Assembly (NCBI RefSeq): GCF_002075285.3 | Contig: NZ_CP021983.2 | Span: 4,441,153 to 4,465,152 of the forward strand | Length of the DNA: 24,000 nt | Reading direction: 5' to 3' | DNA from: Halomicronema hongdechloris C2206 | GTDB lineage: Bacteria; Cyanobacteriota; Cyanobacteriia; Phormidesmidales; Phormidesmidaceae | Shown here: positions 1,647-20,986 of the stretch, piece by piece | How the letters are laid out: every line of letters starts with the position of its first letter | Position numbering within the stretch: position 1 is the first letter of the stretch | Made by a program: the position numbers and the translations under genes | Notes under the pieces: generated by a model | The model's input: only the letters and a program-made list of their open reading frames with translations | What the model was told of the DNA's origin: nothing | Databases searched by the model: none

Positions 1647-1706
1647 GGGTTAACTCCTGTGAAATGGACACAACAAATCGAGACAGTAGAGATAGAGGGG
1701 CTGCTC

Positions 1707-2267
1707 CTACGACTCTTCTTGCTCGGAAACAGCCTTGATGGCGCGAGTCAGGGAAGCTGGCACTTCCTTGATACCCACAGCCAGTTTGGTGGGAACGGCA
1801 TTGAGCCCTACGCCCAACTTGGTGGGAACAGCATTGATGGCACCGGCAATGCGGGCAATCAGCTCTTCCTTTGACGGCAGGTCGGTGATGGCTTTGATGT
1901 CGTTTTCATCAAGGGCTTGTCCCTCCATGACGCCGCCGCGCAAGACGGTTTTTTTGGTGTCTTTCTGGAAGGCTTGGTACTCCTTGATGGCTCCGCCCAG
2001 ATCGTCCTTGACCAATACAAAGGCCGAGGCATCCTTCAGGAAGGTCTGAATCGGCTGCCAGTTATCATCCCCCTCAACGGCAATGCGCATCAGGGTATTC
2101 TTGGTCACCTTACAGACAGCCCCTTTGGAGCTGAGACGATTGCGCAGATCGGTGATTTCAGCAACGGATAATCCCTTGTAGTCAATCACCAGAGCCAGCT
2201 CAAAGCCAGTCAATAGCTCTTTCAGCTCTGCCACAATCTCCTTCTTGTTCGCTAACGTTCTCCCCAT
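1707..2267 (-). CDS. rplJ: 50S ribosomal protein L10
   Basis: [34 protein letters not shown].. is typical L10. A strong SD (AAGGAGGTGA) precedes the ATG. The C-terminal helix carries repeated ~10-aa segments ([11 protein letters not shown] / [11 protein letters not shown] / [11 protein letters not shown]). Confidence 0.97.
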
Positions 2268-2322
2268 TCGGTCTCACCTCCTTTTAATCGGGGATTACAA
2301 ATCTGTGGGGGACCCAGCCATT

Positions 2323-2348
2323 AAAAAACCTCCGGGAAATACCGGAGG
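2323..2348 (-). terminator. Intrinsic-terminator-like hairpin inside the rplJ leader (candidate attenuator)
   Basis: The minus strand reads CCTCCGG-TATTTC-CCGGAGG followed by TTTTTT. It is 56 nt upstream of the rplJ ATG and about 250 nt downstream of the rplA stop. Confidence 0.5.
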
Positions 2349-2598
2349 ACAGGCCCTGAAAGTAAGCGGCGGCCGCACGCTATCAATGTGCGATCGCAAT
2401 GGCTAGGGCATCTACCTCGGCAGGGTTTATGCGCAGGCAACCTGCTGTCTCCGGCTTACCAAGCTATGGAGTTGTGGCGTGGGTCAATAACTTACCTCTC
2501 CATGAGAAATGTTTGCAGTAGGGATATCTTGGCTTGCCTTAGGCAATATCAGCCATCTTAATATCCCGTAGGGCGCTATCACTGATGACCCATGTGGG

Positions 2599-3234
2599 TT
2601 ACCATCGCCAGTAGCGCCCCTTAGCTCCCGAAGGCCGGTTGCGATCGATACATTCCTGTAAGGCCTTTAAGTTCATCAGCAGATCTGCCACCGAAAAAGA
2701 TGCCTTACCGAACATCACATGAACGATTCCAGTCCGATCCGCTCGAAATTCGAGCTTACCTGCCTTAAACTCATCAATCGCCTGGGACAAATTAAAGGTC
2801 ACCGTACCACCCTTGGGAGACGGCATCAAGCCCCGTGGCCCCAACAGACGCCCCAGCTTAGCCACCTTGGGCATCATGTCTGGAGTGGCAATCAAGACAT
2901 CGAAGTCCATCATGCCTTTAGAGATCTCCTCAATTAGATCCTCTGAACCAGCCATGTCAGCCCCGGCACTACTGGCTTCCGTTACATTTTCACCTCGAGC
3001 AATTACAGCCACCCGCACAGTTTGCCCGGTGCCCTTTGGCAAAATGACCGTCGTTCTCAGTTGCTGATCCGTGTACTTAGGATCGATGCCCAAACGAATA
3101 TGGGCCTCTGCTGATTCCGGAAACTTAGCCGTGGCTGTGTCCTTCAGTAAGGTGAGGGCTTCCGTGGGCTCGTACAGCTGATCCTCAACCCTTTTGTGAA
3201 GGTCCTGAAGTCGTCGAGAAATTGTCTTAGGCAT
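2599..3234 (-). CDS. rplA: 50S ribosomal protein L1 (apparently truncated at the C-terminus)
   Basis: [48 protein letters not shown].. is clear L1. The ORF stops two codons after ..GAKGRYWRW, at 211 aa, shorter than typical bacterial L1. Confidence 0.9.
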
Positions 3235-3305
3235 AATCCATTACTACTCCTGGGGTGATAACGAAGTCGCAACCTCTCCCCCTCTATGGGACATACCGCC
3301 CTAGA

Positions 3306-3387
3306 GACGGCAAACTTTTCTACAATACCCTACTCCACCTGACCATGACGGCAAACTTTTCTACAATACCCTACTCCACCTGATCAT
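3306..3387. repeat. 41-bp tandem duplication in the rplK-rplA spacer
   Basis: gacggcaaacttttctacaataccctactccacctga occurs identically at 3306-3342 and 3347-3383, separated by ccat (period 41). Confidence 0.95.
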
Positions 3388-3417
3388 GGCAGAGAATCCT
3401 AGGCTGAGGCAAAGAAC

Positions 3418-3843
3418 CTAGCCAGATACCGTGACGCCCATATTCCGGGCTGTCCCTTCCACGATGCGCATAGCCGCTTCAATATCGTTGGCATTGAGGT
3501 CGGGCATTTTGGTCTCGGCGATCTCTCGCAGTTGGTCACGGCTAATGGATCCCACCTTTTGAGTGCGAGGTTCCCCGGATCCCTTCTCAATCCCGGCCGC
3601 CTTTTTAATCAAGACCGACGCTGGGGGAGTCTTGAGGATGAAGGTGAAGCTGCGGTCTTCAAACACCGAAATCTCGACTGGCACTACCAGCCCCACCTTA
3701 TCCGCCGTTCTGGCATTGTATTCCTTGCAGAACGCCATGATATTGACGCCATGCTGACCTAGAGCTGGGCCAATGGGGGGAGCCGGATTTGCCTTCCCTG
3801 CTGGAATCGCTAATTTAATAATCGCAACTACTTTCTTCGCCAT
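3418..3843 (-). CDS. rplK: 50S ribosomal protein L11
   Basis: [44 protein letters not shown].. is the canonical L11 N-terminus. Confidence 0.97.
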
Positions 3844-3846
3844 CGA

Positions 3847-4521
3847 CTAACTCTCTTTTTGAACCTGGTTGAATTCCAACTCCACTGGGGTATCACGCCC
3901 AAAGATTGACAGCAACGCCTTCAATTTGTGACGTTCAGGACTGACTTCAATCACCTCACCCTCAAAATCTTTGAATGGACCCGACAGCACCAAAATCTTG
4001 TCGCCAGTGGCCATATCAATTTTGACAACAGGCTTCTGTTCCTCAGTCCGCTTGAAGATGCGCTTAACTTCAGCTCGACTCAGGGGCATGGGTTTCACAT
4101 GACCCCGACCGCGACCATAGCGACGCCGCTGCTCCGCCCCCACAAAGTTAATCACATGGGGGGTATTTTTGACGACAGACCAAGCCTCATCATCCATCAG
4201 CATGCGCACCAGCACATAGCCTGGAAAGACCTTCTCCTCAATGTTCTGGCGACTACCATCCTTACGAAGCTTAACTGCCGGAGTTTGGGGGATCTCGATC
4301 TGAAAGACTCGATCAGCTACATCGAAGGTCTTGATGCGCTGCTCCAGATTCAGCTTCACTCGATTTTCACACCCAGAAGCCACCTGCACGGCATACCAGC
4401 GTCCCTGCTTTTCAGAAATCGCTTGGGCCTCACCCTCATCAACTACATCAGCCGATGAGATATCTGCAGATTCCACGTCGTCATTGAAGCCGTCGTTGAA
4501 ATCGTCTGCTGTCAACGCCAT
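3847..4521 (-). CDS. nusG: Transcription termination/antitermination factor NusG
   Basis: ..WYAVQVASGCENRVK.. (NGN domain) and C-terminal KOW ..GDKILVLSGPFKDFEGEVIEV.. There is an acidic N-terminal extension. The position between secE and rplK is conserved. Confidence 0.95.
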   Translation of the reverse strand: MALTADDFNDGFNDDVESADISSADVVDEGEAQAISEKQGRWYAVQVASGCENRVKLNLEQRIKTFDVADRVFQIEIPQTPAVKLRKDGSRQNIEEKVFPGYVLVRMLMDDEAWSVVKNTPHVINFVGAEQRRRYGRGRGHVKPMPLSRAEVKRIFKRTEEQKPVVKIDMATGDKILVLSGPFKDFEGEVIEVSPERHKLKALLSIFGRDTPVELEFNQVQKES

Positions 4522-4523
4522 CT

Positions 4524-4808
4524 CTAAAACACCTGTCTAGACGCCCATCCGAAAACCTGATCGATTAAATAAATCAAGGAAGCGGAAAGGCTCACCATCA
4601 GAATTACGGCGGCAGATTCGCTGATTAACTGCTGCCGACTGGGCCAAACAACTTTGCCTAGCTCTTCCTTGGTACCCTCCAAGAACTTAGCTAGATTAAA
4701 GCCCTCCTCTGCCGTCGATTGAGCCTTGGATTGAGCCTTGGATTGAGCCTTGGATTGAGCCTTAGCATTATCGCGCTTCGGGTCAGATTTCGTATCTTTT
4801 TTAGCCAC
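4524..4808 (-). CDS. secE: Preprotein translocase subunit SecE
   Basis: ..FLEGTKEELGKVVWPSRQQLISESAAVILMVSLSASLIYLID.. is the SecE signature with a single C-terminal TM helix. It lies immediately upstream of nusG. Confidence 0.85.
   Translation of the reverse strand: MAKKDTKSDPKRDNAKAQSKAQSKAQSKAQSTAEEGFNLAKFLEGTKEELGKVVWPSRQQLISESAAVILMVSLSASLIYLIDQVFGWASRQVF
4717..4764. repeat. 12-bp tandem repeat x4 inside secE, encoding (KAQS)n
   Basis: gattgagccttg is repeated at 4717, 4729, 4741 and 4753; the last copy ends in a instead of g. It encodes AKAQSKAQSKAQSKAQS in the SecE N-terminal tail. Confidence 0.95.
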
Positions 4809-4974
4809 TGCCTATAGACTCCTGCGTATTCAACCTCGGCAACTCAAGCACACCAAATACTTTTACTAGCTGAATCAGCCTACGACAATGCATTTAGCGT
4901 CTGGCCTCAAGCTGCAAACTCCTTCTATGATAAGCAGTCTCATTGCCTGTCTGAAAGGCCCTCACCACCGAACG

Positions 4975-5035
4975 ACAATTCTACCCGAAGTCCTGACACG
5001 TCAAGCTGAGTCCCTAAGAACTTCGGGTAGATTGT
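4975..5035 (-). other. Long hairpin in the tRNA-Trp / secE spacer
   Basis: Arms 4975-4991 (acaattctacccgaagt) and 5020-5035 (acttcgggtagattgt) pair over 16 bp with a 1-nt bulge and a 28-nt loop. A second 7-bp pairing (5006-5012 ctgagtc with 5042-5048 gactcag) interleaves with it. Confidence 0.6.
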
Positions 5036-5048
5036 AATGGTGACTCAG

Positions 5049-5121
5049 CGCGCCCTGGAGGACTCGAACCCCCGACATCGGGTTTTGGAGACCCGCGTTC
5101 TACCAACTGAACTAAGGACGC
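5049..5121 (-). tRNA. trnW: tRNA-Trp (anticodon CCA)
   Basis: The minus strand reads GCGTCCT-TA-GTTC-AGTTGGTA-GAAC-G-CGGGT-CTCCAAA-ACCCG-ATGTC-GGGGG-TTCGAGT-CCTCC-AGGGCGC-G. This is a 73-nt cloverleaf folded by hand; CCA is not encoded. tRNA-Trp upstream of secE is a conserved arrangement. Confidence 0.93.
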
Positions 5122-5196
5122 ATACGGCCAGAGTCAATTTGAATAGATTTAACCTGAATCAATCAAGCTAAATCCTAGCTCATCCTTAGTCTACCG

Positions 5197-5559
5197 TTAG
5201 ATAGGCCGGTCGAACCGTTGCTTCAGACGTGTTGCCTTACCAACCCGATTACGCAGGTAGTACAGCTTGGCTCGACGAGCTTTACCACGACGAATGACTT
5301 TGATGTTAGCAATGCGAGGGGCGTGCAGCAGGAAGACCCGCTCTACACCAATACCCTGAAAGATACGGCGGACAGTAATGCTGGCATTGATGCCACCATT
5401 GCGCTTGGCAATCACCGTGCCTTCATAGGGCTGAACCCGCTCTTTTCCCCCTTCCTGAATAATTACACCGACGCGGACAGTGTCGCCGACGTAAATTTCG
5501 GGGATATCGTCCTTATAGTAGTCCGCTTCGATAGAGCGGATGATCTCCTCAGCGTTCAT
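5197..5559 (-). CDS. rplS: 50S ribosomal protein L19
   Basis: ..[58 protein letters not shown].. is canonical L19. Confidence 0.96.
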
Positions 5560-5756
5560 AGGGCCTGCAAAAACGCACAGTCTATTACACTACACTAGTA
5601 GAGCATCAAATATCAACACTCTGCTGGCTACGACAGCAATTCTCATTTTGGCGAAAAGCTGCTCAAGCTCTAGAACTGGACAGTGGAAAGTTTTCAGTCC
5701 GCTGGCAAGACACCAAGAAAAACGGACGTGGGTTAAGTCGAATCACCCATCATGTC

Positions 5757-10434: not shown

Positions 10435-10650
10435 GTGGCACTGTCTGAGAACGCTATCGACGCTGTAAACAACGCTGTCAATACTGAGCGCGAAGACTTC
10501 AGCGAGTATGTCGCCCATTTGCAACTGCATATGGCCCTGCAGGCTCGTAACCTGGTACCGGCACTGCAACATCGGGGCGATCGTCGTGAGACGCTATTGC
10601 ACCAAACCCAAGCTGATTTCGAAAAACTGATTTCTCGTCAAGGGGTATAG
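10435..10650 (+). CDS. Small hypothetical protein (71 aa)
   Basis: The GTG start is preceded by GGGAGAGGG (10422-10430). The composition is helical and charged. A good terminator follows. Function unknown. Confidence 0.5.
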   Translation: MALSENAIDAVNNAVNTEREDFSEYVAHLQLHMALQARNLVPALQHRGDRRETLLHQTQADFEKLISRQGV

Positions 10651-11469: not shown

Positions 11470-12378
11470 CTACCCAGCGGTAGGTAAAAGGGTAAGCTGG
11501 CCCTGGTCACCATTGAGCTCTGCTGGCACACCCACTGGCAGGGCGGCGTTGACGCCATCATGGCCGAAGGGTAGATCGGAGACGACGGGAATGCCGAGAT
11601 CGCCGATGCGATCGCACAGTACCTCAGCCACACTGAAGCTGGGTGTATGCTCGGCGGGAAGACAGCGGCTAAAGCGCCCTAGGGCAATGCCACCAACTCG
11701 CTGGAGTTTGCCACTAGCCCGCCAATGGGTCAGCAGGCGGTCAATGCGATAGGGAGCCTCAGTGACATCTTCTAAAGCCAGAATCACTCCGTCCAAATCA
11801 GGCTCATCGGCGGTACCTAACAGATGAGTAGCCACCGTCAAGTTGGCCGGAAGCAGTCGTCCCCGTGTTTTCCCTTGGTGCCAGCCCCGACCCTGTAAGG
11901 GGGCCACAGAACGGCCCTCGATCCAGTCAAATAGGCGCTGGCGCGACCACTGCGGTTCCTGGGCCAGAGTAGTCAAGAGAGGTCCATGGACCCCGGCGAT
12001 CCCCAGCTTGGCTAGACTCCACAACAGGCTGGTGATATCCGAAAAGCCAATCAGCCATTTGGGCTCGGTCGAAGGCCAACGCCACGCCTCCAGCAGGCGG
12101 GTGCCGCCAAAGCCGCCGCGGGCACAGAGGATGCCTCGACAATCCGGATCCAGCCAGGCCTGCTGCAGTTGCTGGCGGCGAGCGGCATCATGGCCCGCCA
12201 GATACCCCCATTGGTGATCATAGCCAGGGCTCAGCTCTATGCGATAGCCCCGCCGCCGCCAGATATCTACCCCGGCCTGAAAAGCCTCCAACTCCCGTAA
12301 GGCACCACTGGGGGCAATTACCCGTAGACAATCCCCAGGTTGCAACGGCGGCGGTAACTGACAATCAGAACGGCGCAT
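11470..12378 (-). CDS. LD-carboxypeptidase (peptidase S66, LdcA-like)
   Basis: ..LRVIAPSGAL.., ..GYLAGHDAARRQQL.., ..ILCARGGFGGTRLL.., nucleophile motif IGFSDITSL, and ..LPFGH.. are all S66 hallmarks. Confidence 0.88.
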   Translation of the reverse strand: MRRSDCQLPPPLQPGDCLRVIAPSGALRELEAFQAGVDIWRRRGYRIELSPGYDHQWGYLAGHDAARRQQLQQAWLDPDCRGILCARGGFGGTRLLEAWRWPSTEPKWLIGFSDITSLLWSLAKLGIAGVHGPLLTTLAQEPQWSRQRLFDWIEGRSVAPLQGRGWHQGKTRGRLLPANLTVATHLLGTADEPDLDGVILALEDVTEAPYRIDRLLTHWRASGKLQRVGGIALGRFSRCLPAEHTPSFSVAEVLCDRIGDLGIPVVSDLPFGHDGVNAALPVGVPAELNGDQGQLTLLPTAG

Positions 12379-12781
12379 TGACAGGGCTACTCCTTAATCG
12401 GCCGTTCATTACTATACACACCGACCATTGAGACGGTTTTGGGACGCCTAGCGACGCTGCTCTCAGTAGTCTTAACTCAACAAGCCGGCGAGCTGCTAAC
12501 CAGCAGTCATTCCAAGAAAGCAAGCATATTAGCCTGTTTCGCCAAGTTAGAGACGGGACTAGCCCTGGCTAGTCAGCCATTGGGCTACGGCAAACGCTCT
12601 GAAAGAGCACCCTAAGACCTAATTTGCAAAGGAATTCTTCAAAAGCTTGCAAGGCTAATAACAACCTTGAGGGAGCGTTTGCGGTGGTCCTAGAAGATTT
12701 GCCCTAACTGCTGTGTAGGCGTTTCGCAAATCACCCAAAGTAGCTCTTGATTCTCCATAAAAGTCTGGGCAGACTGGAGAG

Positions 12782-13888
12782 GTGCAACGGCTGTTCATCT
12801 GCTTAGAGGGGAGTCTCCTCGGCGACATCGTGTTACTCAAGACCTTCGACATTGCTCCAGGGCAAGTTCAGACCTTCCTATGGGACGGAGGAGCGGAAGC
12901 ATGGTCGCAGGTAATACTGGCTGAGGAAATTTGCTCAGCAAATCTACGGCTGGTGTTTCACAGCTGGCCCCAATTGTCCGAGCACGAGGGGATTATTCAG
13001 AGTGTGCTCCAGACCTTGGCAGAGGTTGTCTATAGACTCTGGCCCAGCTGGTATTGCCAGGACAACTTATTTGCCGATGATGCTACCACAGAAGCCGCCG
13101 TCCTCAACAGCTATCGCTGTCTAGACTGGCAGAGGCGTGAGGCTGGAGTATCGTTGCCATGGCTGAAAGCAGCCGTTCGAGCCCGACAGCAGGGCAAGGT
13201 GCCGCTTCTAGATCCATTTCCCCACTCTCTGCAGCTGGCTCAACTGGCCCTTGCCATTGACCCAGCCGGTATTGTTCTAGTCTTAGCCTTAGCGGAGCCC
13301 CGGCCTGCCGACCATCGTTTGTTGGCCTTAGCTAGGGCCGTCAATTGGATAGCCATCCATTCACAGGCTCGTGTGGCCCTGTGGCTGCCTCAATCTCTAG
13401 CACAAGCGGCGGCGTTGGATTCGATCTTGTATGGCGCTAAGGTTCTGCCTTGCCCATTGACGGCGGCGGTTGCTACCGCTGAAGACGAAGCTAAACATGT
13501 GGTATTTCCCATCCACGGTAGACCGCATCCGTTTAGTCCAGGGGAGGAGAAATTGGCTCAATGGCTGGCTCGAGATAGGGAGTTAGGGCAGCTATTTAGC
13601 TTCAACCAGATGGTGAGGACGAAGAGGGGCCAGACCTATCTGGTAGATTTGCTGTGGCTAGAGGGTCGGGTGATTGTTGAAGTGGATGGTTACCGCCACC
13701 ACGGTAACCGGTTTGGGTTTAATCAGGATCGCCATCGTGACTATGACCTCCTGATCAGCGACTATGTGGTGCTGCGGCTGCCCCATGATGAGGTGCTCAA
13801 CGATGTCGAAGTTGCGGTAGAAAAGATCCGCGACGTGGTGCGATTTCGTCGCCGACAGCTTTGTCATACCCGCGAGGTGTCTCTGTGA
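12782..13888 (+). CDS. Cassette gene A: unknown ~245-aa N-terminal region fused to a C-terminal DUF559 / Vsr-like (PD-(D/E)xK-type) endonuclease domain
   Basis: GTG start just after GGAGAG. The C-terminus (about nt 13517-13837) reads SPGEEKLAQWLARDRELGQLFSFNQMV..TYLVDLLWLEGRVIVEVDGYRHHGN..DRHRDYDLLISDYVVLRLPHDEVL. This matches my memory of the DUF559 pattern (T/S-x-x-E-x-x-LW .. hhhDF .. hhhEhDG..H .. D..RD..L...G..VLR). I do not recognise the N-terminal part. Confidence 0.85.
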   Translation: MQRLFICLEGSLLGDIVLLKTFDIAPGQVQTFLWDGGAEAWSQVILAEEICSANLRLVFHSWPQLSEHEGIIQSVLQTLAEVVYRLWPSWYCQDNLFADDATTEAAVLNSYRCLDWQRREAGVSLPWLKAAVRARQQGKVPLLDPFPHSLQLAQLALAIDPAGIVLVLALAEPRPADHRLLALARAVNWIAIHSQARVALWLPQSLAQAAALDSILYGAKVLPCPLTAAVATAEDEAKHVVFPIHGRPHPFSPGEEKLAQWLARDRELGQLFSFNQMVRTKRGQTYLVDLLWLEGRVIVEVDGYRHHGNRFGFNQDRHRDYDLLISDYVVLRLPHDEVLNDVEVAVEKIRDVVRFRRRQLCHTREVSL

Positions 13889-14544
13889 CTATTGAATTAA
13901 CGCCCAAGCTGGATTTGGTGATTTGGAGTCTCCTAATCACAGGCGATGAACCGATGATGTCAAAGGTGAAGCCAGGCATAACGCCAACTGAGCGAAAAAA
14001 GCTGATTGATGCAGGTTTGATTCGATTGGAGAAACGAGGTCGAGCTTCTCATATTGTGCTAGAAGATAAAGCCTGGGATTGGCTGGCCACACGGTTGCAA
14101 TCTCCAGACTTCACAGTCGAGTTCCCGAGTCGAGCTACGACTGCTATTCCCACATTTCAAGTCTTGCTAGGAAAAGTAGGGGAATTTTTGCGATCGCACA
14201 ATATTTCCCTGGCTGAATTTCTCAACCCACCTCCTGAGTCCCACAAACTGAATAATGATGATTTAGAGAAAGTTGCCGAAGTCGACTTAACAAAACATAT
14301 ACATGCTGCTTATACCAAGATTACAGGTGGTCAATACAGCGTTAGAGTGCGACTATCTGACCTACGACATAATCTATCTAATTTTTCTCGAGCTGAAGTT
14401 GACAGTGCATTGAGAAATATGGAGTTAGCTGGACATGTAGTCTTAATGCATTTAGACGATCCAGATGAAATCAAGCCAGAAGATGAGGCGGCAGCTGTCG
14501 ATATTGATGGCCATAAAAGTCACATTTTATACTTAAAGGCTTAG
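13885..14544 (+). CDS. Cassette gene B: predicted DNA-binding protein with two winged-helix-like modules
   Basis: The ORF track starts at TTG 13861. I prefer GTG 13885, which overlaps the gene A stop as GTGA. The N-terminal LTPKLDLVIWSLLITGDEP..ITPTERKKLIDAGLIRLEKRGRASHIVLEDKAWDWL looks MarR-like wHTH. The C-terminal VRLSDLRHNLSNFSRAEVDSALRNMELAGHVVLMHLDD looks like a second wHTH. The domain calls are by eye only. Confidence 0.7.
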   Translation: MTIELTPKLDLVIWSLLITGDEPMMSKVKPGITPTERKKLIDAGLIRLEKRGRASHIVLEDKAWDWLATRLQSPDFTVEFPSRATTAIPTFQVLLGKVGEFLRSHNISLAEFLNPPPESHKLNNDDLEKVAEVDLTKHIHAAYTKITGGQYSVRVRLSDLRHNLSNFSRAEVDSALRNMELAGHVVLMHLDDPDEIKPEDEAAAVDIDGHKSHILYLKA

Positions 14545-14555
14545 GATATAGAACG

Positions 14556-17500
14556 GTGGAAAATTCGATTGCTTTTCAGGCTCTTCAATCTGTCGATTTT
14601 AACTGGACCATGCACATTAAAAGTGTATGGGAAGACATAATTGATGATATTGAGGGATTACACCAACAGGAACGCCACTTTATCGCCTCTGCCCTTGACC
14701 AACTCCTAAAGACATCTCAGCCGCTTGCGCCACTTGGCATTGTTATTGCAGGGGAGGGAGGTGTAGGTAAAACTCATCTCATTGGAGCAATTCGTAAATA
14801 TACCATTACCCATGGGCTCAATTTTATTCTGGTCGATATGACTGATGTCCGTGACTTTTGGGAAACTGTTCTTCAGGGCTATATTAGTTCATTACAAGAA
14901 GATGCTGTTGATGGTACGGCCCAATTTCAACTAAGAGATTTAGTGGGTTATTTGGTTTCCCTGACAGGGAAATCGGTCTCTTCAGGTGTGATGGCTGCTC
15001 TGCCTGAGAAGTCTTTGAGAAATGCTATCAAGCACGTTTTGAATGCCCTAGCTCAAGTTGATCGGAAAGCTGCAGCCGAGTTCCAAGATGTCATCCGAGC
15101 CTTAATTTTGTTAAATTCTGATAGCTTTGAAATCTTGGGTATTGGTCATACTTGGCTGCAGGGATTAGAAATCGAAACTGAGGATAAAACTCGATTTGGC
15201 TTCAGGCAAACTATTGCGACTAGTCCCAGGAAAATCGTACAGGGTTTGTCTTGGTTAATGAGTTTGCAGCGACCATCAGTATTGGCTCTCGATCAACTGG
15301 ATTCTATCGTGATGCAACATCACTATGGAGCCGGTGGCTCTACAGATTTAGATCTATCAGAAGAACAACGTATCTCAAAAGCCATTATCGAAGGTATTGG
15401 CGGTGGATTAATGGCTCTACGTGATACCATCTATCGTACGCAAATAATTGTTTCTTGTCTGGAATCAACCTGGAACGTTCTTGTAAATCAAGCTATTAGT
15501 ACATTTCAAGATCGCTTTCATAGACCGCTCATCCTAGGACGAGTTATTAGTTCTGAAGTTGCTCGAGCCATTGTTGAAAAACGCCTTCAGCAGGCATATG
15601 AGCAGGTTGGTTTTGTTGCCCCCTACTCTACTTGGCCATTTTCCAAATCATTTTTCCAATCTGCTATTCGTCATTCCCCGAGACGGATTTTAAAGCGTTG
15701 CTATGAGCATCAACAGCATTGCTTAGTGGCAGGAGAAATTCAGGAAATTCATTCATTTGGTAACGACGTAGTCATAGATGATCCTCCTGTCGACCTCGAG
15801 GCAATTGATCAGGCATTCGCAACGGCTCAGCAACAGGTTGACATCAGGGCTGCCCTAGATGAGACCCAAGAAGATGCTGTGTTAGGGCAGTGGCTGCAAA
15901 CCGCTGCAAAGTGCTTGGTTGCGGAGAACCCGACTCCAGATACGGTGGACAGCGAGGTAGAGGTCAACTTTCCAGGCGGCAAAAATTATCCTCAACTTCA
16001 CGCCAGGGTGAGGCTGATTTACCGCAACGAAGGGGACCGGGAGAAGCATTTGTCCTTGAGGGCGCTGTTGCGATCGCATCATGCCGCCTACCGCGCCCGC
16101 CTGAAAACGGCCATGACCACGGCTGGTATCGACCATGCCCTGAGTTTTCGGCGGCTGCTCATTGTCAGAGTCGGTGATATTCCTGGTGGTGCAACTACTC
16201 AAGAATTGAGCCACCGATTTACTGAAGCAGGCGGCTTAATGGTCTATCCCGACGAGGCTGAATTGCGCCTCTTGGCAGCCCTGCATCAGATCAGGTCAAT
16301 GGAACATTTTGATACCTGGCTGCATCAGCGTCGTCCAGTGTCACAACTGCGGTGCTTTCAATCCACCGTCACCTGGCTATTTGGCGATACCGTCGATGTA
16401 TTCTCCTCTGGGAAAACGGTCTCTTCGGGGACGCTAGATTCCCCTCCTCAACCAGCACCTGACAAGCCAGATGAGTTGCCACTGAAATCGCCACATTCAG
16501 GAGATCACCCTGTCGCACCCTCGCCGGTTGGCCTGCCCATTGGCCGACAGCTTAGACAGCCCCAAGACATCGTCGCGATTCCCCTAGAGGCCTTAACCAA
16601 ACACATCGTCATCCTGGCCGGCAGCGGGGCGGGGAAAACCGTGCTGGTGCGTCGACTGGTGGAAGAAGCCATCCTGAAGCAGATCCCGGCCATTGTCATT
16701 GATGGGGCCAATGATCTGGCCCGCATGGGAGATCCATGGCCAGAAACACCAGCGGCATGGGATCACCTCGACCGTCGCCAAGCCCAGCAGTACCATCAAT
16801 CCGTCGATGTCGCCGTTTGGACCCCTGGCCGTGAAGCTGGCAATGCAGTCACCCTGAACCCGCTACCGGATTTTGCCGCCCTCACGAACAACGCCGATGA
16901 ACTCAATCAGGCCATCGACATGGCCCGCGACAGTCTGCAAGATATCGTTGCCTCGGGCAATTCAGCCACGGCCAAGGTGCGGCGAGGCATTCTCAGAAAT
17001 GCCCTAGAGGTGTTCGCAACTAACGGCGGCGGTGATCTTGAGGGCTTTGCCGACTTTTTAAGAGACCTCCCCGAGGATGCCGCCGGCAACATTTCTAGAG
17101 CCAGCCAACATGCCCAAGCCATGGCAGATTTACTCAGTGCAGAAATGGCCAACAATCCCCTCCTGCGTCAGAGTGGCGCCCCACTGGCCCCGGCCATTTT
17201 GCTAGGGCTAGAGGGTTCGTCTGCCAAAACTCGCCTCTCGATTCTCAACTTTATTGGTCTGTCTGGACTGCCGCAGCAGCAGCAGTTCCTCCATCAACTG
17301 GCCATGACCCTATTTACCTGGATTAAGAAACACCCAGCCCCAGCAGGTCAACCCCTACGGGGGCTGCTGGTGATCGATGAGGCCAAGGACTTTTTACCGT
17401 CTCGGCAATCGACTCCCTGTAAATCCAGCCTGAATCGTCTCGCTGCCCAGGCTCGGAAATACGGGCTAGGGCTGATCTTTGCCACCCAAGCCCCCAAGAG

Positions 17501-17771
17501 TATTGACCATAATATTATCGCCAACTGCTCAACCCAGTTCTATGGGCGCAGCAATTCTCCAGCAGCGATCGATGTAGTGCGGGATCAACTCCAGCAACGC
17601 GGCGGCCAGGGGGACGATATTGCTCAACTGCAGCGAGGAGAGTTTTATGCCGTTTCTGAATCAATCAATCCCCCGATTAAAATCACGGTGCCGCTGTGTT
17701 TGTCCTTCCATCCGCCCACTCCCTTAGATGAATCAGAGGTATTAGAGCGGGCCAAGCAATCTCGCCAATAA
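14556..17771 (+). CDS. Cassette gene C: 1071-aa dual P-loop protein with an N-terminal ORC/Cdc6-like AAA+ module and a C-terminal HerA/FtsK-like (DUF87-type) ATPase
   Basis: GTG start 11 nt after the gene B stop. Module 1 has Walker A GEGGVGKTHL (aa 66-75, nt 14751) and a Walker-B-like SVLALDQLD (aa 241-249), then a lid-like ..RPLILGRVISSEVARAIVEKRL. A Pro-rich linker spans aa ~625-660. Module 2 has ..LPIGRQL..VAIPLEALTKHIVILAGSGAGKT (Walker A, nt 16617) and Walker B LLVIDEAKDF. The motif ARKYGLGLIFATQAPKSIDHNIIANCSTQFYGR is typical of HerA/DUF87 proteins. Confidence 0.9.
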   Translation: MENSIAFQALQSVDFNWTMHIKSVWEDIIDDIEGLHQQERHFIASALDQLLKTSQPLAPLGIVIAGEGGVGKTHLIGAIRKYTITHGLNFILVDMTDVRDFWETVLQGYISSLQEDAVDGTAQFQLRDLVGYLVSLTGKSVSSGVMAALPEKSLRNAIKHVLNALAQVDRKAAAEFQDVIRALILLNSDSFEILGIGHTWLQGLEIETEDKTRFGFRQTIATSPRKIVQGLSWLMSLQRPSVLALDQLDSIVMQHHYGAGGSTDLDLSEEQRISKAIIEGIGGGLMALRDTIYRTQIIVSCLESTWNVLVNQAISTFQDRFHRPLILGRVISSEVARAIVEKRLQQAYEQVGFVAPYSTWPFSKSFFQSAIRHSPRRILKRCYEHQQHCLVAGEIQEIHSFGNDVVIDDPPVDLEAIDQAFATAQQQVDIRAALDETQEDAVLGQWLQTAAKCLVAENPTPDTVDSEVEVNFPGGKNYPQLHARVRLIYRNEGDREKHLSLRALLRSHHAAYRARLKTAMTTAGIDHALSFRRLLIVRVGDIPGGATTQELSHRFTEAGGLMVYPDEAELRLLAALHQIRSMEHFDTWLHQRRPVSQLRCFQSTVTWLFGDTVDVFSSGKTVSSGTLDSPPQPAPDKPDELPLKSPHSGDHPVAPSPVGLPIGRQLRQPQDIVAIPLEALTKHIVILAGSGAGKTVLVRRLVEEAILKQIPAIVIDGANDLARMGDPWPETPAAWDHLDRRQAQQYHQSVDVAVWTPGREAGNAVTLNPLPDFAALTNNADELNQAIDMARDSLQDIVASGNSATAKVRRGILRNALEVFATNGGGDLEGFADFLRDLPEDAAGNISRASQHAQAMADLLSAEMANNPLLRQSGAPLAPAILLGLEGSSAKTRLSILNFIGLSGLPQQQQFLHQLAMTLFTWIKKHPAPAGQPLRGLLVIDEAKDFLPSRQSTPCKSSLNRLAAQARKYGLGLIFATQAPKSIDHNIIANCSTQFYGRSNSPAAIDVVRDQLQQRGGQGDDIAQLQRGEFYAVSESINPPIKITVPLCLSFHPPTPLDESEVLERAKQSRQ

Positions 17772-17913
17772 AATCTGCAGAGTAATGATTTATAACAACT
17801 GCAATACGTCATTCCGGACAAGCGCAGCACGACCCGGAATTCAGGTCGTACACTCTGGGCCCAAGAGACTGTTTGAAACCAGCGTTTATCAGCCAGCAGT
17901 TGGTCCCTCTGCC

Positions 17914-18588
17914 TTAGCCACCTGTTTGAATACTCAAATGCTGAGTAGCCGCCTGAGCAACGATCTCAGACTCATCCTGAGTCAGGCGCTCTAGGGCCGC
18001 CCGGGCCTCTGGAGCCGTGAAATGATGCAAGGCCGTGACCAGGCGATGGCGTACCTGCCAGTCGGCATCTTCTACGAAGGGCAATAGTAAAGGGATAGCG
18101 CGCTCATCCTGCAACTCGCCCAGGGAGCCAATGGCTGCGGTCTTCACCAATTCGTTGTCCGACCCCAGGGCCTCTCGCAGCAAATCAAAGGCCCTAGGGT
18201 CACCAAACTCTCCTAGGGCTGCAATAATGCTGAACTGGACTAGCCATTCTGAACTTTCATAATACTGGGCTTTCAAATCCTCAAACAGCCCCGATAATTT
18301 CAAGGCACCGATAGTGTCTGCCGCCGCCGCTTGAACGTCAGGTTCAGGATCGCTCAGTAACGCCTGACGCAATAGCCCTAGCAAGCGGTTCCCATCTTGA
18401 TGGCCCAGGCTAGCTAGTTGGCTAATGGCCGCGTAACGTACTCGATCATTGCCGTCCTGGGCAGCTAACTGCACCATGTCAAAGGCGATGGCCGGGTCGA
18501 GCTGTCGTAATTGGTTAACGCCGCGGAGTCGCTCCCCAAAATCCTCAGACTGCAAGAGCTGCCTGGCACTTTCCGGTGTGATGGACAT
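17914..18588 (-). CDS. HEAT-repeat protein (PBS-lyase HEAT-like repeats, NblB/CpcE-like family)
   Basis: Repeated ..D.RVR..A..aLg.. units are present (DGNDRVRYAAISQLASLG, DPEPDVQAAAADTIGAL, DNELVKTAAIGSLGEL, DADWQVRHRLVTAL). Confidence 0.85.
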   Translation of the reverse strand: MSITPESARQLLQSEDFGERLRGVNQLRQLDPAIAFDMVQLAAQDGNDRVRYAAISQLASLGHQDGNRLLGLLRQALLSDPEPDVQAAAADTIGALKLSGLFEDLKAQYYESSEWLVQFSIIAALGEFGDPRAFDLLREALGSDNELVKTAAIGSLGELQDERAIPLLLPFVEDADWQVRHRLVTALHHFTAPEARAALERLTQDESEIVAQAATQHLSIQTGG

Positions 18589-18862
18589 TTGTTATCCGCT
18601 ACACAAAACCCTTAGTACCACTATCGGGCATTTTGGGGATCAGGCGACAGAGTGTCTACAAGATTTTCTCAGAATTCAAGAGAGAGCCCTGGGCATATTC
18701 AGGGTGATTGCTCTGAAAAACCTCTGTGGTAGCAGGGTCAAGCCTTCGTCCCATGCCAGGAGCTACCAACATTAAGCAATATTTCACCTAACCAGTATCT
18801 GGTGCGGGACTCGAGAAAACGATTTAACCCTGCACCAGATAGCAACCGCTGTTATGGCCATA

Positions 18863-19345
18863 TCAAACAGACTGGGCCGTCTCATCGTAACTTCTAGCCA
18901 TTTCCCGCACGATATCGCCCCGGGTGAGGATGCCCACCACCTTGCGGTCCTGATCAACCACGGGCAAACGCCGCACATGTTTGTCGTGCATGGTTTGGGC
19001 TGCATCCCGAATCGACTGGCTTGGCGTTGCCGTCACCACCTGTTCAGTCATTAGATCTCGGACTAATTGCCCCAGCGCCTTGTGCAATTCTTGGTTGTAG
19101 CGAACCGGATTTTTCAGATAGATCACACTGTCAAGCAAGGTGATATAGGCGGGCAAAGGCGCGCCAGTAGCTTGCCACATCAAATCTGATTCCGACAAAA
19201 TTCCCACCAGTCGGCCGGTATCATCTGTCACCGGTATGCCGCTGATGTGGTGATCGATTAGCACCTGCACAGCATCCTTCAAGACAGTAGTGGGACGCAC
19301 CGTTAGTGGATTCGGTGTCATCACGTCGGCGACAGCTTTGGCCAT
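18863..19345 (-). CDS. CBS domain pair protein
   Basis: Two CBS motifs are present: ..VMTPNPLTVRPTTVLKDAVQVLIDHHISGIPVTDDTGRLVGILSESDL.. and ..LMTEQVVTATPSQSIRDAAQTMHDKHVRRLPVVDQDRKVVGILTRGDIV.. Confidence 0.9.
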   Translation of the reverse strand: MAKAVADVMTPNPLTVRPTTVLKDAVQVLIDHHISGIPVTDDTGRLVGILSESDLMWQATGAPLPAYITLLDSVIYLKNPVRYNQELHKALGQLVRDLMTEQVVTATPSQSIRDAAQTMHDKHVRRLPVVDQDRKVVGILTRGDIVREMARSYDETAQSV

Positions 19346-20566: not shown

Positions 20567-20887
20567 TTAGGTTGGAGTGTTCCCCGTTAGGACCGCCTGC
20601 AAGCGGCTGCGGAATTGGCCTTTAGGATGTCCTCCCTTGACTTCTCCCAGGATGGTGAAGTCCCCGTCTGGATCATCGCAGATGATATATGTCGGCCATC
20701 CCATTTGAGCTTTATCGGGATATTGAGCCAGCAACACATTGCGATATTTGCGGTAAGTCGCTGTGTCTTGCATCTTCACGTCGACGAATTCCAAGCCCAG
20801 CTCCGTGGCGACTTTCTGATCATAGAACGACATCTTGTGGCAGATGCCGCAGTCCTCGGAGGAAAATTTAATTACGGTGCGACTCAT
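20567..20887 (-). CDS. Thioredoxin-fold protein (CGIC motif)
   Basis: The ORF track gives 20567..20953. I prefer the ATG at 20887 (MSRTVIKFSSEDCGICHKM..), which is preceded by GGGGAG. It has a CxxC motif and a later ..GWPTYII.. as in thioredoxin-like proteins. Confidence 0.75.
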   Translation of the reverse strand: MSRTVIKFSSEDCGICHKMSFYDQKVATELGLEFVDVKMQDTATYRKYRNVLLAQYPDKAQMGWPTYIICDDPDGDFTILGEVKGGHPKGQFRSRLQAVLTGNTPT

Positions 20888-20986
20888 GGTTCTTGCTCCC
20901 CAGCACAATCGATCGTCAGTATGACTCGTTAGCCTGCAGAGGACCATAGTCATCCTATAGCAATCGCTACGGAACCATGACCAGAG

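Follow-up and report, generated by a model that had tools for sequence, protein, structure and literature searches.

Introduction

Among the systems described so far, the closest to the cassette treated here - three adjacent genes (A, B and C) on the plus strand of a 24,000-nucleotide stretch of Halomicronema hongdechloris C2206 DNA, referred to below as the window - are the 'HerA/FtsK capture systems', mobile neighbourhoods put forward as a computational prediction by Rakesh, Aravind & Krishnan (NAR 2024; PMC10853773). The passages of that paper which set out the class list as its parts an Orc/CDC6 AAA+ ATPase, an inactive restriction endonuclease (REase) domain inserted before the C-terminal winged helix-turn-helix (wHTH) domain of Orc, an active REase, a HerA/FtsK ATPase and a wHTH protein, with the domains joined in single or multiple polypeptides and with two active REase families. 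[quoted passage not shown] The capture idea is restated in a 2026 BREX paper (PMC12839542).

Other described systems share individual parts with the cassette. Sir2-HerA and HerA-DUF4297 act, in the accounts drawn on here, by activating an effector inside the HerA complex. MADS consists of eight genes, including those for a methylase, a specificity subunit, an OLD-type ATPase, a DUF4276 protein, the kinase Mad6 and the DptG-like Mad7; Mad6, Mad7 and Mad8 are mandatory, and Mad8 is a HerA-like ATPase required for phage resistance.

Judged from its domains and motifs, the window's cassette fits the predicted Orc/CDC6-HerA/FtsK capture class, and we lean towards seeing it as a self-contained, horizontally exchanged module of this type directed against invaders (phages, plasmids, conjugative elements). 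The initial annotation had recognised no named system in this combination; as a predicted class it is not new, since neighbourhoods of Orc/CDC6, HerA/FtsK, REase and wHTH genes were already predicted in PMC10853773. What our analysis adds is an invariant D-Q Walker B motif, a B-C core whose nuclease partner is optional, a natural swap of a block within the cassette and a cassette backbone that, on codon comparison, is clearly younger than its chromosomal flanks.

Results

Gene content and conservation of the cassette

The cassette is made up of three genes (lengths in amino acids, aa, of the open reading frames, ORFs):

12782-13888, plus strand: gene A, 368 aa, from the ORF list
13885-14544, plus strand: gene B, 219 aa from its likely start at GTG 13885; the longest ORF, 13861-14544 from TTG 13861, has 227 aa
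14556-17771, plus strand: gene C, 1071 aa, from the ORF list

At the A/B junction, the B start GTG 13885 overlaps the A stop TGA as GTGA, and an 11-nt gap separates the B stop from the C start at GTG 14556. These junctions indicate that A, B and C form one tightly coupled operon, and 4-nt gene overlaps are common in other loci of the module.

Relatives were sought with the C-family alignment in one genome per species (185,579 species), a pattern-limited scan that returned 162 confirmed stretches; 80 loci were fetched, and 65 sequences make up the motif census used below. Gene B lies directly upstream of C in 76/80 loci, the four exceptions being contigs that end before B, so that every evaluable locus (76/76) carries the pair. 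Gene A lies directly upstream of B in 64 of the 80 loci, that is in 64/73 (~88%) of those evaluable. Among the 16 loci without A, seven are on contigs that end early and nine have room for it but hold unrelated genes there, and the family hidden Markov model found no diverged A at the A-less loci. Because these nine loci hold B and C without A, nuclease A is not obligatory. B-C is an obligate pair with A as its frequent partner, and the co-occurrence of A, B and C, which the initial annotation had proposed to look for in other genomes, is far beyond chance.

The module is present in at least ten phyla (Cyanobacteria, Chloroflexota, Planctomycetota, Myxococcota, Desulfobacterota, Verrucomicrobiota, Acidobacteriota and others), and the full trio is found among Alphaproteobacteria (Methylobacterium) and Actinomycetota (Nonomuraea, Tsukamurella) as well. 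The H. hongdechloris locus lies around XM38_042360, and the Tsukamurella proteins include WP_068741540 to WP_068741542. All-against-all clustering of the flanking ORFs gave no fourth conserved gene and nothing beyond antisense shadow ORFs inside A and C. No relatives of the module were found in IMG/VR or phage genomes, and among plasmid records it is seen on very large replicons only.

Domains and motifs of the three proteins

Within proteins A and C, the following parts can be distinguished:

12809-13429 (A aa ~10-216), plus strand: N-terminal domain of A, predicted alpha/beta fold, no Walker A
13538-13879 (A aa 253-366), plus strand: C-terminal nuclease domain of A, predicted Vsr/EDxHD/DUF559 restriction-endonuclease fold
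14556-15575 (C aa 1-340), plus strand: N-terminal AAA+ module of C, from Pfam families and motifs
14751-14774 (C aa 66-73), plus strand: N-terminal Walker A of C, GEGGVGKT
15282-15302 (C aa 243-249), plus strand: N-terminal Walker B-like motif of C, LALDQLD
15576-16550 (C aa 341-665), plus strand: middle region of C, with aa 341-610 conserved and aa ~610-665 a low-complexity linker
16551-17768 (C aa 666-1071), plus strand: C-terminal HerA/FtsK-type ATPase of C, from DUF87, PADLOC and PDB matches
16620-16640 (C aa 689-695), plus strand: C-terminal Walker A of C, GSGAGKT
17367-17384 (C aa 938-943), plus strand: C-terminal Walker B of C, LVIDEA

The domain content that the initial annotation had assigned to the three genes held up throughout: Pfam finds DUF559 at the C-terminus of A (aa 272-353, E=8e-10), where the predicted fold is Vsr-type, as well as AAA_22/AAA_16 at aa 46-167 and DUF87/HerA at aa 673-743 of C, and the model of B has two winged-helix-like domains.

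Protein C has 451 full-length homologues of ~1050-1120 aa. In its N-terminal module (aa 1-340), AAA_16 was matched in 11/11 members, AAA_22 in 8/11 and BrxC_BrxD in 4/11, besides NACHT, nSTAND, IstB and DnaA models, and these Pfam matches support, together with one motif, a place in the ORC/Cdc6-STAND-initiator branch of AAA+ proteins. That motif is the Walker B of pattern h-A-h-D-Q-h-D, which has the ORC/Cdc6 'DExD' layout with Gln for Glu. Such a Glu to Gln exchange in the Walker B of AAA+ proteins is the classic substitution by which ATP binding is allowed and hydrolysis blocked. Walker A is kept in 65/65 sequences and so are Q247 and D249, with D246 in 64/65; because of the invariant Walker A and the Gln in Walker B, the module appears to bind ATP, to hydrolyse it poorly and to be switch-like rather than motor-like.

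The C-terminal module is canonical by comparison. GxGxGK[TS] and hhhDE are present in all 65 sequences, with K694, D941 and E942 kept in each (65/65), so C appears to combine one switch-like with one motor-like engine. Between the two Walker motifs of the HerA module lie ~240 aa. Residues 670-1045 match PADLOC mad8 (E=1.8e-26, model positions 15-299 of 314); several HerA models match too, those of NCBIfam among them, and the profile of the C family also hits solved chains that carry the label HerA or ATP-binding protein, e.g. 8xau (E=4e-11), the aligned query positions (~890-1050) being confined to the C-terminal part of the RecA-like core. The middle region at aa 341-610 is strongly conserved, with many invariant charged residues (e.g. 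H482, R484, R486, E492, E496, H498). It gave no Pfam match in ten members and no PDB sequence homologue, and profile-profile comparison of it with the A nuclease and with B found no similarity. As a separate observation, a 688-aa paralogue lies directly downstream of the full-length C in locus L036 (11471-13537), covering C aa 7-607 without the HerA module, so the ORC/Cdc6-type half can also occur as a protein of its own.

Protein A belongs to a family of at least 308 clusters, and PF18741 MTES_1575 is a further match of A and of many homologues. Its AlphaFold model has a predicted local distance difference test score (pLDDT) of 85, and against the PDB Foldseek pairs the nuclease domain with the catalytic domain of I-Bth0305I (3r3p; probability 1.0, template-modelling score, TM, 0.79), and also with Neisseria NGO0050 (3hrl) and AbaSI. 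With D289, E300, D302, D316, R317, D320 and R332 invariant in 65/65 sequences (H307 in 58/65) and the catalytic set thus intact, A is probably an active nuclease. Its N-terminal domain, in turn, bears a weak Foldseek likeness to the nucleoside triphosphatase (NTPase) domains found in RdrA, ORC/Cdc6, TnsC and Apaf-like proteins (E 0.014-0.1, TM 0.2-0.3). Its P-loop-equivalent positions are not conserved among the 65 sequences, and profile-profile comparison with the C N-terminal module found no similarity. It is the fastest-evolving segment (mean pairwise distance 0.72) and may be a degenerate, non-catalytic NTPase-like adaptor.

Protein B has no match in Pfam, PADLOC or NCBIfam. Its AlphaFold model (pLDDT 88) contains two winged-helix-like domains, at aa 15-79 and aa 136-225, with a disordered linker of variable length between them, and its best fold matches are small winged-helix DNA binders (ArsR, MarR, AspA, F-93; E about 0.01-0.1, probability about 1). 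As the model shows two domains and the fold matches are uniformly winged-helix, B may reasonably be predicted to be a double wHTH protein; no DndG or FokI chain is among its top 50 fold matches. An exhaustive profile search gave 1,970 representative clusters, 369 of them at E<=1e-30 and nearly all of 200-270 aa, so the B family is large in environmental data. Its mean pairwise distance is 0.65 vs 0.48 for the HerA module.

A replaced block in a cassette younger than its flanks

The closest relative of the window's cassette is found in an uncultured cyanobacterium (L081), at the same site and between the same flanking genes. Comparing the two by third-position identity in codons for identical amino acids gave these values, to which the last line adds the position of the block treated below:

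Eight flanking housekeeping genes: third-position identity 0.60-0.69
Gene A: third-position identity 0.87
N-terminal domain of B: third-position identity 0.83
C residues 436-1071: third-position identity 0.82
14200-15850, plus strand, 1.6 kb: replaced block, holding the C-terminal domain of B and the first ~420-430 residues of C

With 0.82-0.87 as opposed to 0.60-0.69, the cassette backbone has a more recent shared ancestor than the surrounding chromosome and is, by this codon measure, clearly the younger of the two. The block departs from this. Within 14.2-15.85 kb the nucleotide identity to L081 is 38-69%, while left of the block it is 88-96% and right of it mostly 91-98%; at the amino-acid level the two parts of the block reach 0.38 and 0.49, the rest of the cassette 0.90-0.97. 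Its G+C content (GC) is 0.426 and its GC at third codon positions (GC3) 0.29-0.35, compared to a GC3 of 0.58-0.70 in flanking genes, and its nearest relative is P0003 (70%), that of the rest of C being P0002 (90%). The block is thus compositionally foreign and was replaced as one unit, with sharp boundaries. In the close pairs L021/L024, L003/L028, L010/L012 and L018/L022, too, divergence is greatest in these segments. Because they were replaced together, we infer that the C-terminal domain of B and the N-terminal module of C function together, and probably bind each other, as the variable recognition end of the system.

In a further pair, L008 and L018 (Leptothoe PORK10 and Leptolyngbya PCC 7375), the distance is 0.69 in the N-terminal domain of B and 0.09 in the HerA module; with divergence confined there, this B domain seems exchangeable independently as well.

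Mobility and neighbourhood

Three observations make the module clearly accessory, namely an operon insertion in Tsukamurella, a split copy in Leptolyngbya and the absence of the cassette from other cyanobacterial contigs. In Tsukamurella tyrosinosolvens NZ_LR134464.1 (L086, 4241-9209), a trio annotated as DUF559, hypothetical and DUF87 lies in the middle of the ribosomal-protein operon, between rplN and rpsQ, and shares this insert with a DEAD-box helicase, two hypothetical genes and a VapBC pair. (Although its label says plasmid, the record carries core ribosomal genes.) In Leptolyngbya sp. PCC 7375 (L018, 10970-12541), a 460-aa DDE transposase gene interrupts the C homologue close to its 3' end, and the last ~105 codons of C resume at 12541-12867; split by this insertion sequence (IS), the copy is a pseudogene. 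As for the window's own site, the genes for CBS and HEAT-repeat proteins (17914-19345) are paired in most of 80 cyanobacterial metagenome contigs (L087-L166), with variable DNA beyond the 3' end of HEAT, and in none of the 62 evaluable contigs anchored on the CBS-HEAT pair is the cassette found beyond HEAT (62/62 without it). The universal synteny that would mark a housekeeping locus, a prospect raised by the initial annotation, is therefore not what cyanobacteria show. A strict empty site (LdcA next to HEAT) was not found; more distant cyanobacteria keep CBS-HEAT and differ on the far side.

Among the 134 immediately flanking genes, no recurrent integrase, transposase or methylase was seen, and the initial annotation was right that no methyltransferase, integrase or transposase accompanies the trio, as checked in the cassette and its neighbours. 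The module moves without companion genes, and no link to defence islands is visible. The clearest local defence-type cluster adjoining it is in L070 (10557-15118), where the downstream genes encode a PLD-nuclease/SNF2-ResIII helicase/DUF3427 protein and another HerA-like ATPase, this one stand-alone.

The locus in the window, its start codons and spacers

The window is part of the H. hongdechloris chromosome, and its gene C product is 100% identical to NCBI protein P0001. The three plus-strand ORFs, the spacers of 403 bp and 142 bp and the minus-strand housekeeping flanks are as first annotated:

12379-12781, no strand: upstream spacer, from ldcA (minus strand) to gene A, 403 bp
17772-17913, no strand: downstream spacer, between the convergent 3' ends of gene C and the HEAT-repeat gene, 142 bp

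On the upstream side, the minus strand carries an LD-carboxypeptidase-type Peptidase_S66 gene (LdcA), rhomboid, MutS, GloB, L19, tRNA-Trp, NusG, L11, L1 and L10, and on the downstream side HEAT, CBS, a Peptidase_M42 gene and UvrD; Pfam labels of the flanks are those of the co-linear orthologues in L081.

Gene A may start at GTG 12830, which gives 352 aa (family median 356 aa). For B, GTG 13885 is most likely the start, and the resulting 219 aa equal the length of NCBI protein P0121. The NCBI start of C lies 18 codons downstream of GTG 14556, omits window 14556-14609 and yields the 1053-aa P0001; since L10 and W17, which are lost in that version, are conserved family-wide, GTG 14556 is the more likely start.

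In the upstream spacer, ~330 nt (roughly 12330-12760) are absent from L081, whose ldcA-A spacer has only ~118 bp; the alignment is 100% gaps at 12401-12700. A single 18-nt imperfect inverted repeat (12582-12599 / 12673-12690) is present in this spacer. There was no significant Rfam match in it, no long ORF in the extra DNA, no att-like repeat and no more promoter-like sites than in shuffled sequence, and the window is without terminal repeats. The downstream spacer is poorly conserved relative to L081 (44-53% with gaps) and has no terminator-like site, with a count in the scanned region not above that of shuffles; the nearest plus-strand terminator-like site (17684-17698) is inside the 3' end of C.

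Further out, two small ORFs without Pfam match, 10435-10650 on the plus strand (71 aa) and 20567-20953 on the minus strand (128 aa), are 97% and 94% identical to L081 ORFs at the same positions and are probably real conserved genes. Upstream of gloB, the window (1700-5600) has a ribosomal/transcription cluster (L10, L1, L11, NusG, tRNA-Trp, L19), whereas L081 has glycogen synthase and DNA ligase genes instead; with gene content differing there, synteny between the two ends at gloB.

Comparison with known systems

The three proteins, sub-regions of them and 32 members of the B family were scanned for named systems. PADLOC and NCBIfam assigned the trio to no named system, in line with the initial annotation.

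With the HerA/FtsK capture systems the cassette shares, as far as can be predicted, a putative ORC/Cdc6-branch AAA+ module, a HerA/FtsK ATPase, an active REase-fold nuclease, a fast-evolving multi-wHTH protein and mobility. Of these, the HerA/FtsK domain, the nuclease (its activity predicted from sequence), the wHTH protein and its fast evolution, and mobility were confirmed here; the ORC/Cdc6 feature stands on AAA_16 (11/11), AAA_22 (8/11) and the D-x-h-D Walker B, with PDB matches limited to the Walker A region. Where some published HerA proteins have a helical-bundle insert, ~240 aa lie between Walker A and B here. The passages of PMC10853773 on the class do not name its two active REase families as Vsr/DUF559 and tie its wHTH protein to DndG/SspB/FokI, whereas B has no detectable DndG/DptG/SspB similarity. 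No paper naming both DUF87 and DUF559 was found in the literature searched.

MADS was rejected. The HerA module of C resembles Mad8 over nearly the full model, but only mad8 matches, and no mad6, mad7, methylase or specificity subunit was found in A, B, the N-terminal part of C or the conserved neighbours. Hhe/Nhi-type helicase-nuclease defence proteins, reportedly described by Gao et al. in 2020, are said to combine MTES_1575/DUF559-type REase domains with a superfamily 1 (SF1) helicase in one polypeptide; they would thus share the nuclease family of A, whose nuclease is instead fused to a P-loop-less alpha/beta domain, with the motors on a separate protein.

Sir2-HerA and HerA-DUF4297 likewise encode a HerA-type ATPase beside an effector enzyme. 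They are two-gene systems with a stand-alone HerA, while the cassette has a Vsr/DUF559 effector (not Sir2 or the Cap4-like DUF4297) and an obligatory wHTH protein; both were rejected, there being no Sir2 or DUF4297 domain and the HerA module being fused to an N-terminal region of ~660 aa. C matches the PADLOC HerA models over the C-terminal third of the model only. DndFGH and SspFGH share a large protein ending in a HerA/FtsK domain and a multi-wHTH DNA-binding subunit with the cassette. They too were rejected, as no DndF, DndG, SspF or SspG homologues were detected and the DndH and SspH matches at the HerA module of C were marginal (E 0.008-0.07), and there are no phosphorothioation genes near the cassette. 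Archaeal HerA-NurA has a HerA-family ATPase and a nuclease in one operon, as here, where the distribution is patchy and horizontal, not lineage-wide; with no NurA or Mre11/Rad50 in the cassette or its conserved neighbours, it was rejected as well. Classical restriction-modification fell for want of a methyltransferase in the cassette or among recurrent neighbours, and BREX, Avs and Septu are not assigned either, given that the Pfam, PADLOC and NCBIfam scans gave only mad8 and HerA matches.

Discussion

How might such a module work? If the cassette is of the Orc/CDC6-HerA/FtsK capture type, B would bind DNA via its winged-helix domains and dock through its C-terminal domain on the ORC/Cdc6-type module at the N-terminus of C. 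That module, ATP-bound and poorly hydrolysing, would serve as a nucleotide-dependent switch or loader rather than as a motor, and the two together would form an ATP-gated part for recognition and loading. The HerA/FtsK module of C may oligomerise to a ring that pumps double-stranded DNA, and the Vsr-type nuclease of A, tethered via its P-loop-less alpha/beta domain, would cut the DNA so captured. Here we infer the physical interactions, the ring, the target and the defence phenotype; that HerA might scaffold or activate the nuclease is an analogy. A defence module nevertheless seems likely to us, on the strength of domain logic, mobility and mosaic evolution rather than of guilt by association or experiment.

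Several points weigh against this reading and have to be set beside it. About 12% of evaluable loci have B-C without A, so the nuclease is not an obligatory part. The association with defence genes for which the initial annotation had proposed to look did not emerge, since the 134 immediate neighbours are heterogeneous, the commonest Pfam families occur in 3/134 only, no family recurs and PADLOC defence-type matches among them are sporadic and single-member; in the window itself, the neighbours are housekeeping genes. The ORC/Cdc6 assignment consists of weak Pfam matches and one motif, with PDB sequence matches that cover the Walker A region only, and on the inactive REase insert by which the capture class is defined the sequence comparisons are silent, aa 341-610 of C giving no Pfam or PDB match. 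B shows no similarity to the DndG, DptG, SspB and Mad7 models of PADLOC, nor do 32 members of its family. Family-wide, the distances of the B C-terminal domain correlate with those of the N-terminal and middle parts of C at rho about 0.4 (0.21 with its own N-terminal domain), which is a modest, weak co-evolution signal at deep divergence, where close pairs are more informative. Finally, we found no experiment on the capture class or on this family in the literature searched.

It is tempting to go one step further with the replaced block. The C-terminal domain of B and the N-terminal module of C might be an exchangeable specificity cassette, traded across lineages, whose swap re-targets a constant nuclease/translocase chassis, much as target-recognition domains are swapped in the HsdS subunits of Type I restriction systems. 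We offer this tentatively, as a possibility with the odds against it. Were it true, the swap would be a previously undescribed way to diversify an ATPase-based immune sensor.

Of the alternatives, the one nearest to the capture reading is an abortive-infection or toxin module, in which A would be a non-specific DNase held inactive by B-C, freed on an infection signal and lethal to the cell. Sir2-HerA and HerA-DUF4297, by the accounts cited above, do activate their effector within the HerA complex, the N-terminal ATPase of C looks like a switch and not a motor, and the cassette lacks a modification enzyme by which self DNA could be marked. Yet loci with B-C only exist, and in A the low-pLDDT linker and the separate N-terminal domain suggest tethering, with nothing to indicate inhibition. 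Sequence alone cannot separate this scenario from capture; to our minds, it is unlikely.

Similarly improbable, we think, is a selfish homing-type cassette whose nuclease cuts cassette-free alleles so that recombination copies the cassette in, the ORC/Cdc6-like and HerA/FtsK modules then being remnants of the element's replication-initiation and DNA-transfer machinery. Such a view would account for a nuclease structurally closest to the homing endonuclease I-Bth0305I, for a backbone younger than its flanks yet at the same site in two lineages, as homing or allelic transfer would give, for travel alone without an integrase and for the position in a Tsukamurella ribosomal-protein operon. It fares less well with an insertion context that differs at nearly every locus and offers no common target gene, with nine loci that keep B-C without A, with the lack of phage copies in IMG/VR and phage genomes, with plasmid records confined to very large replicons and with the lack of terminal repeats in the window; moreover, 5 kb, three genes and two conserved ATPases far exceed what homing needs.

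A module for DNA repair or chromosome maintenance, in the manner of archaeal HerA-NurA end resection or FtsK-type segregation, with the nuclease processing ends and the wHTH protein targeting lesions or sites, would suit the pairing of a HerA/FtsK-type motor with a nuclease, the place of the window's cassette between MutS and a UvrD-type helicase and the mostly housekeeping neighbours, but we hold it to be the least probable of all, because the module occurs rarely and patchily (162 confirmed stretches in 185,579 species genomes by the pattern-limited scan), missing from the same site in 62/62 other cyanobacterial contigs, horizontally exchanged, internally mosaic and interrupted by an IS in one strain, because it has no NurA or Mre11/Rad50 partner and because the proximity to MutS/UvrD does not recur at other loci.

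Even if the prediction of a capture-type module is wrong, the cassette is still a clear case of a mobile operon without an integrase that uses recombination to replace both itself and its own parts. For experiments it offers several handles, namely a 'trapped' D-Q Walker B beside a canonical engine, an optional nuclease and a block whose swap in nature marks out the probable recognition module. Should the prediction hold, the cassette would represent a widespread immune module, present in at least ten phyla and with a B family of about 2,000 clusters at 50% identity, that is missing from PADLOC v2.0, and it would give a compact three-gene entry to the HerA/FtsK capture idea, in which a DNA pump derived from segregation or conjugation and an ORC-like loader intercept invaders.

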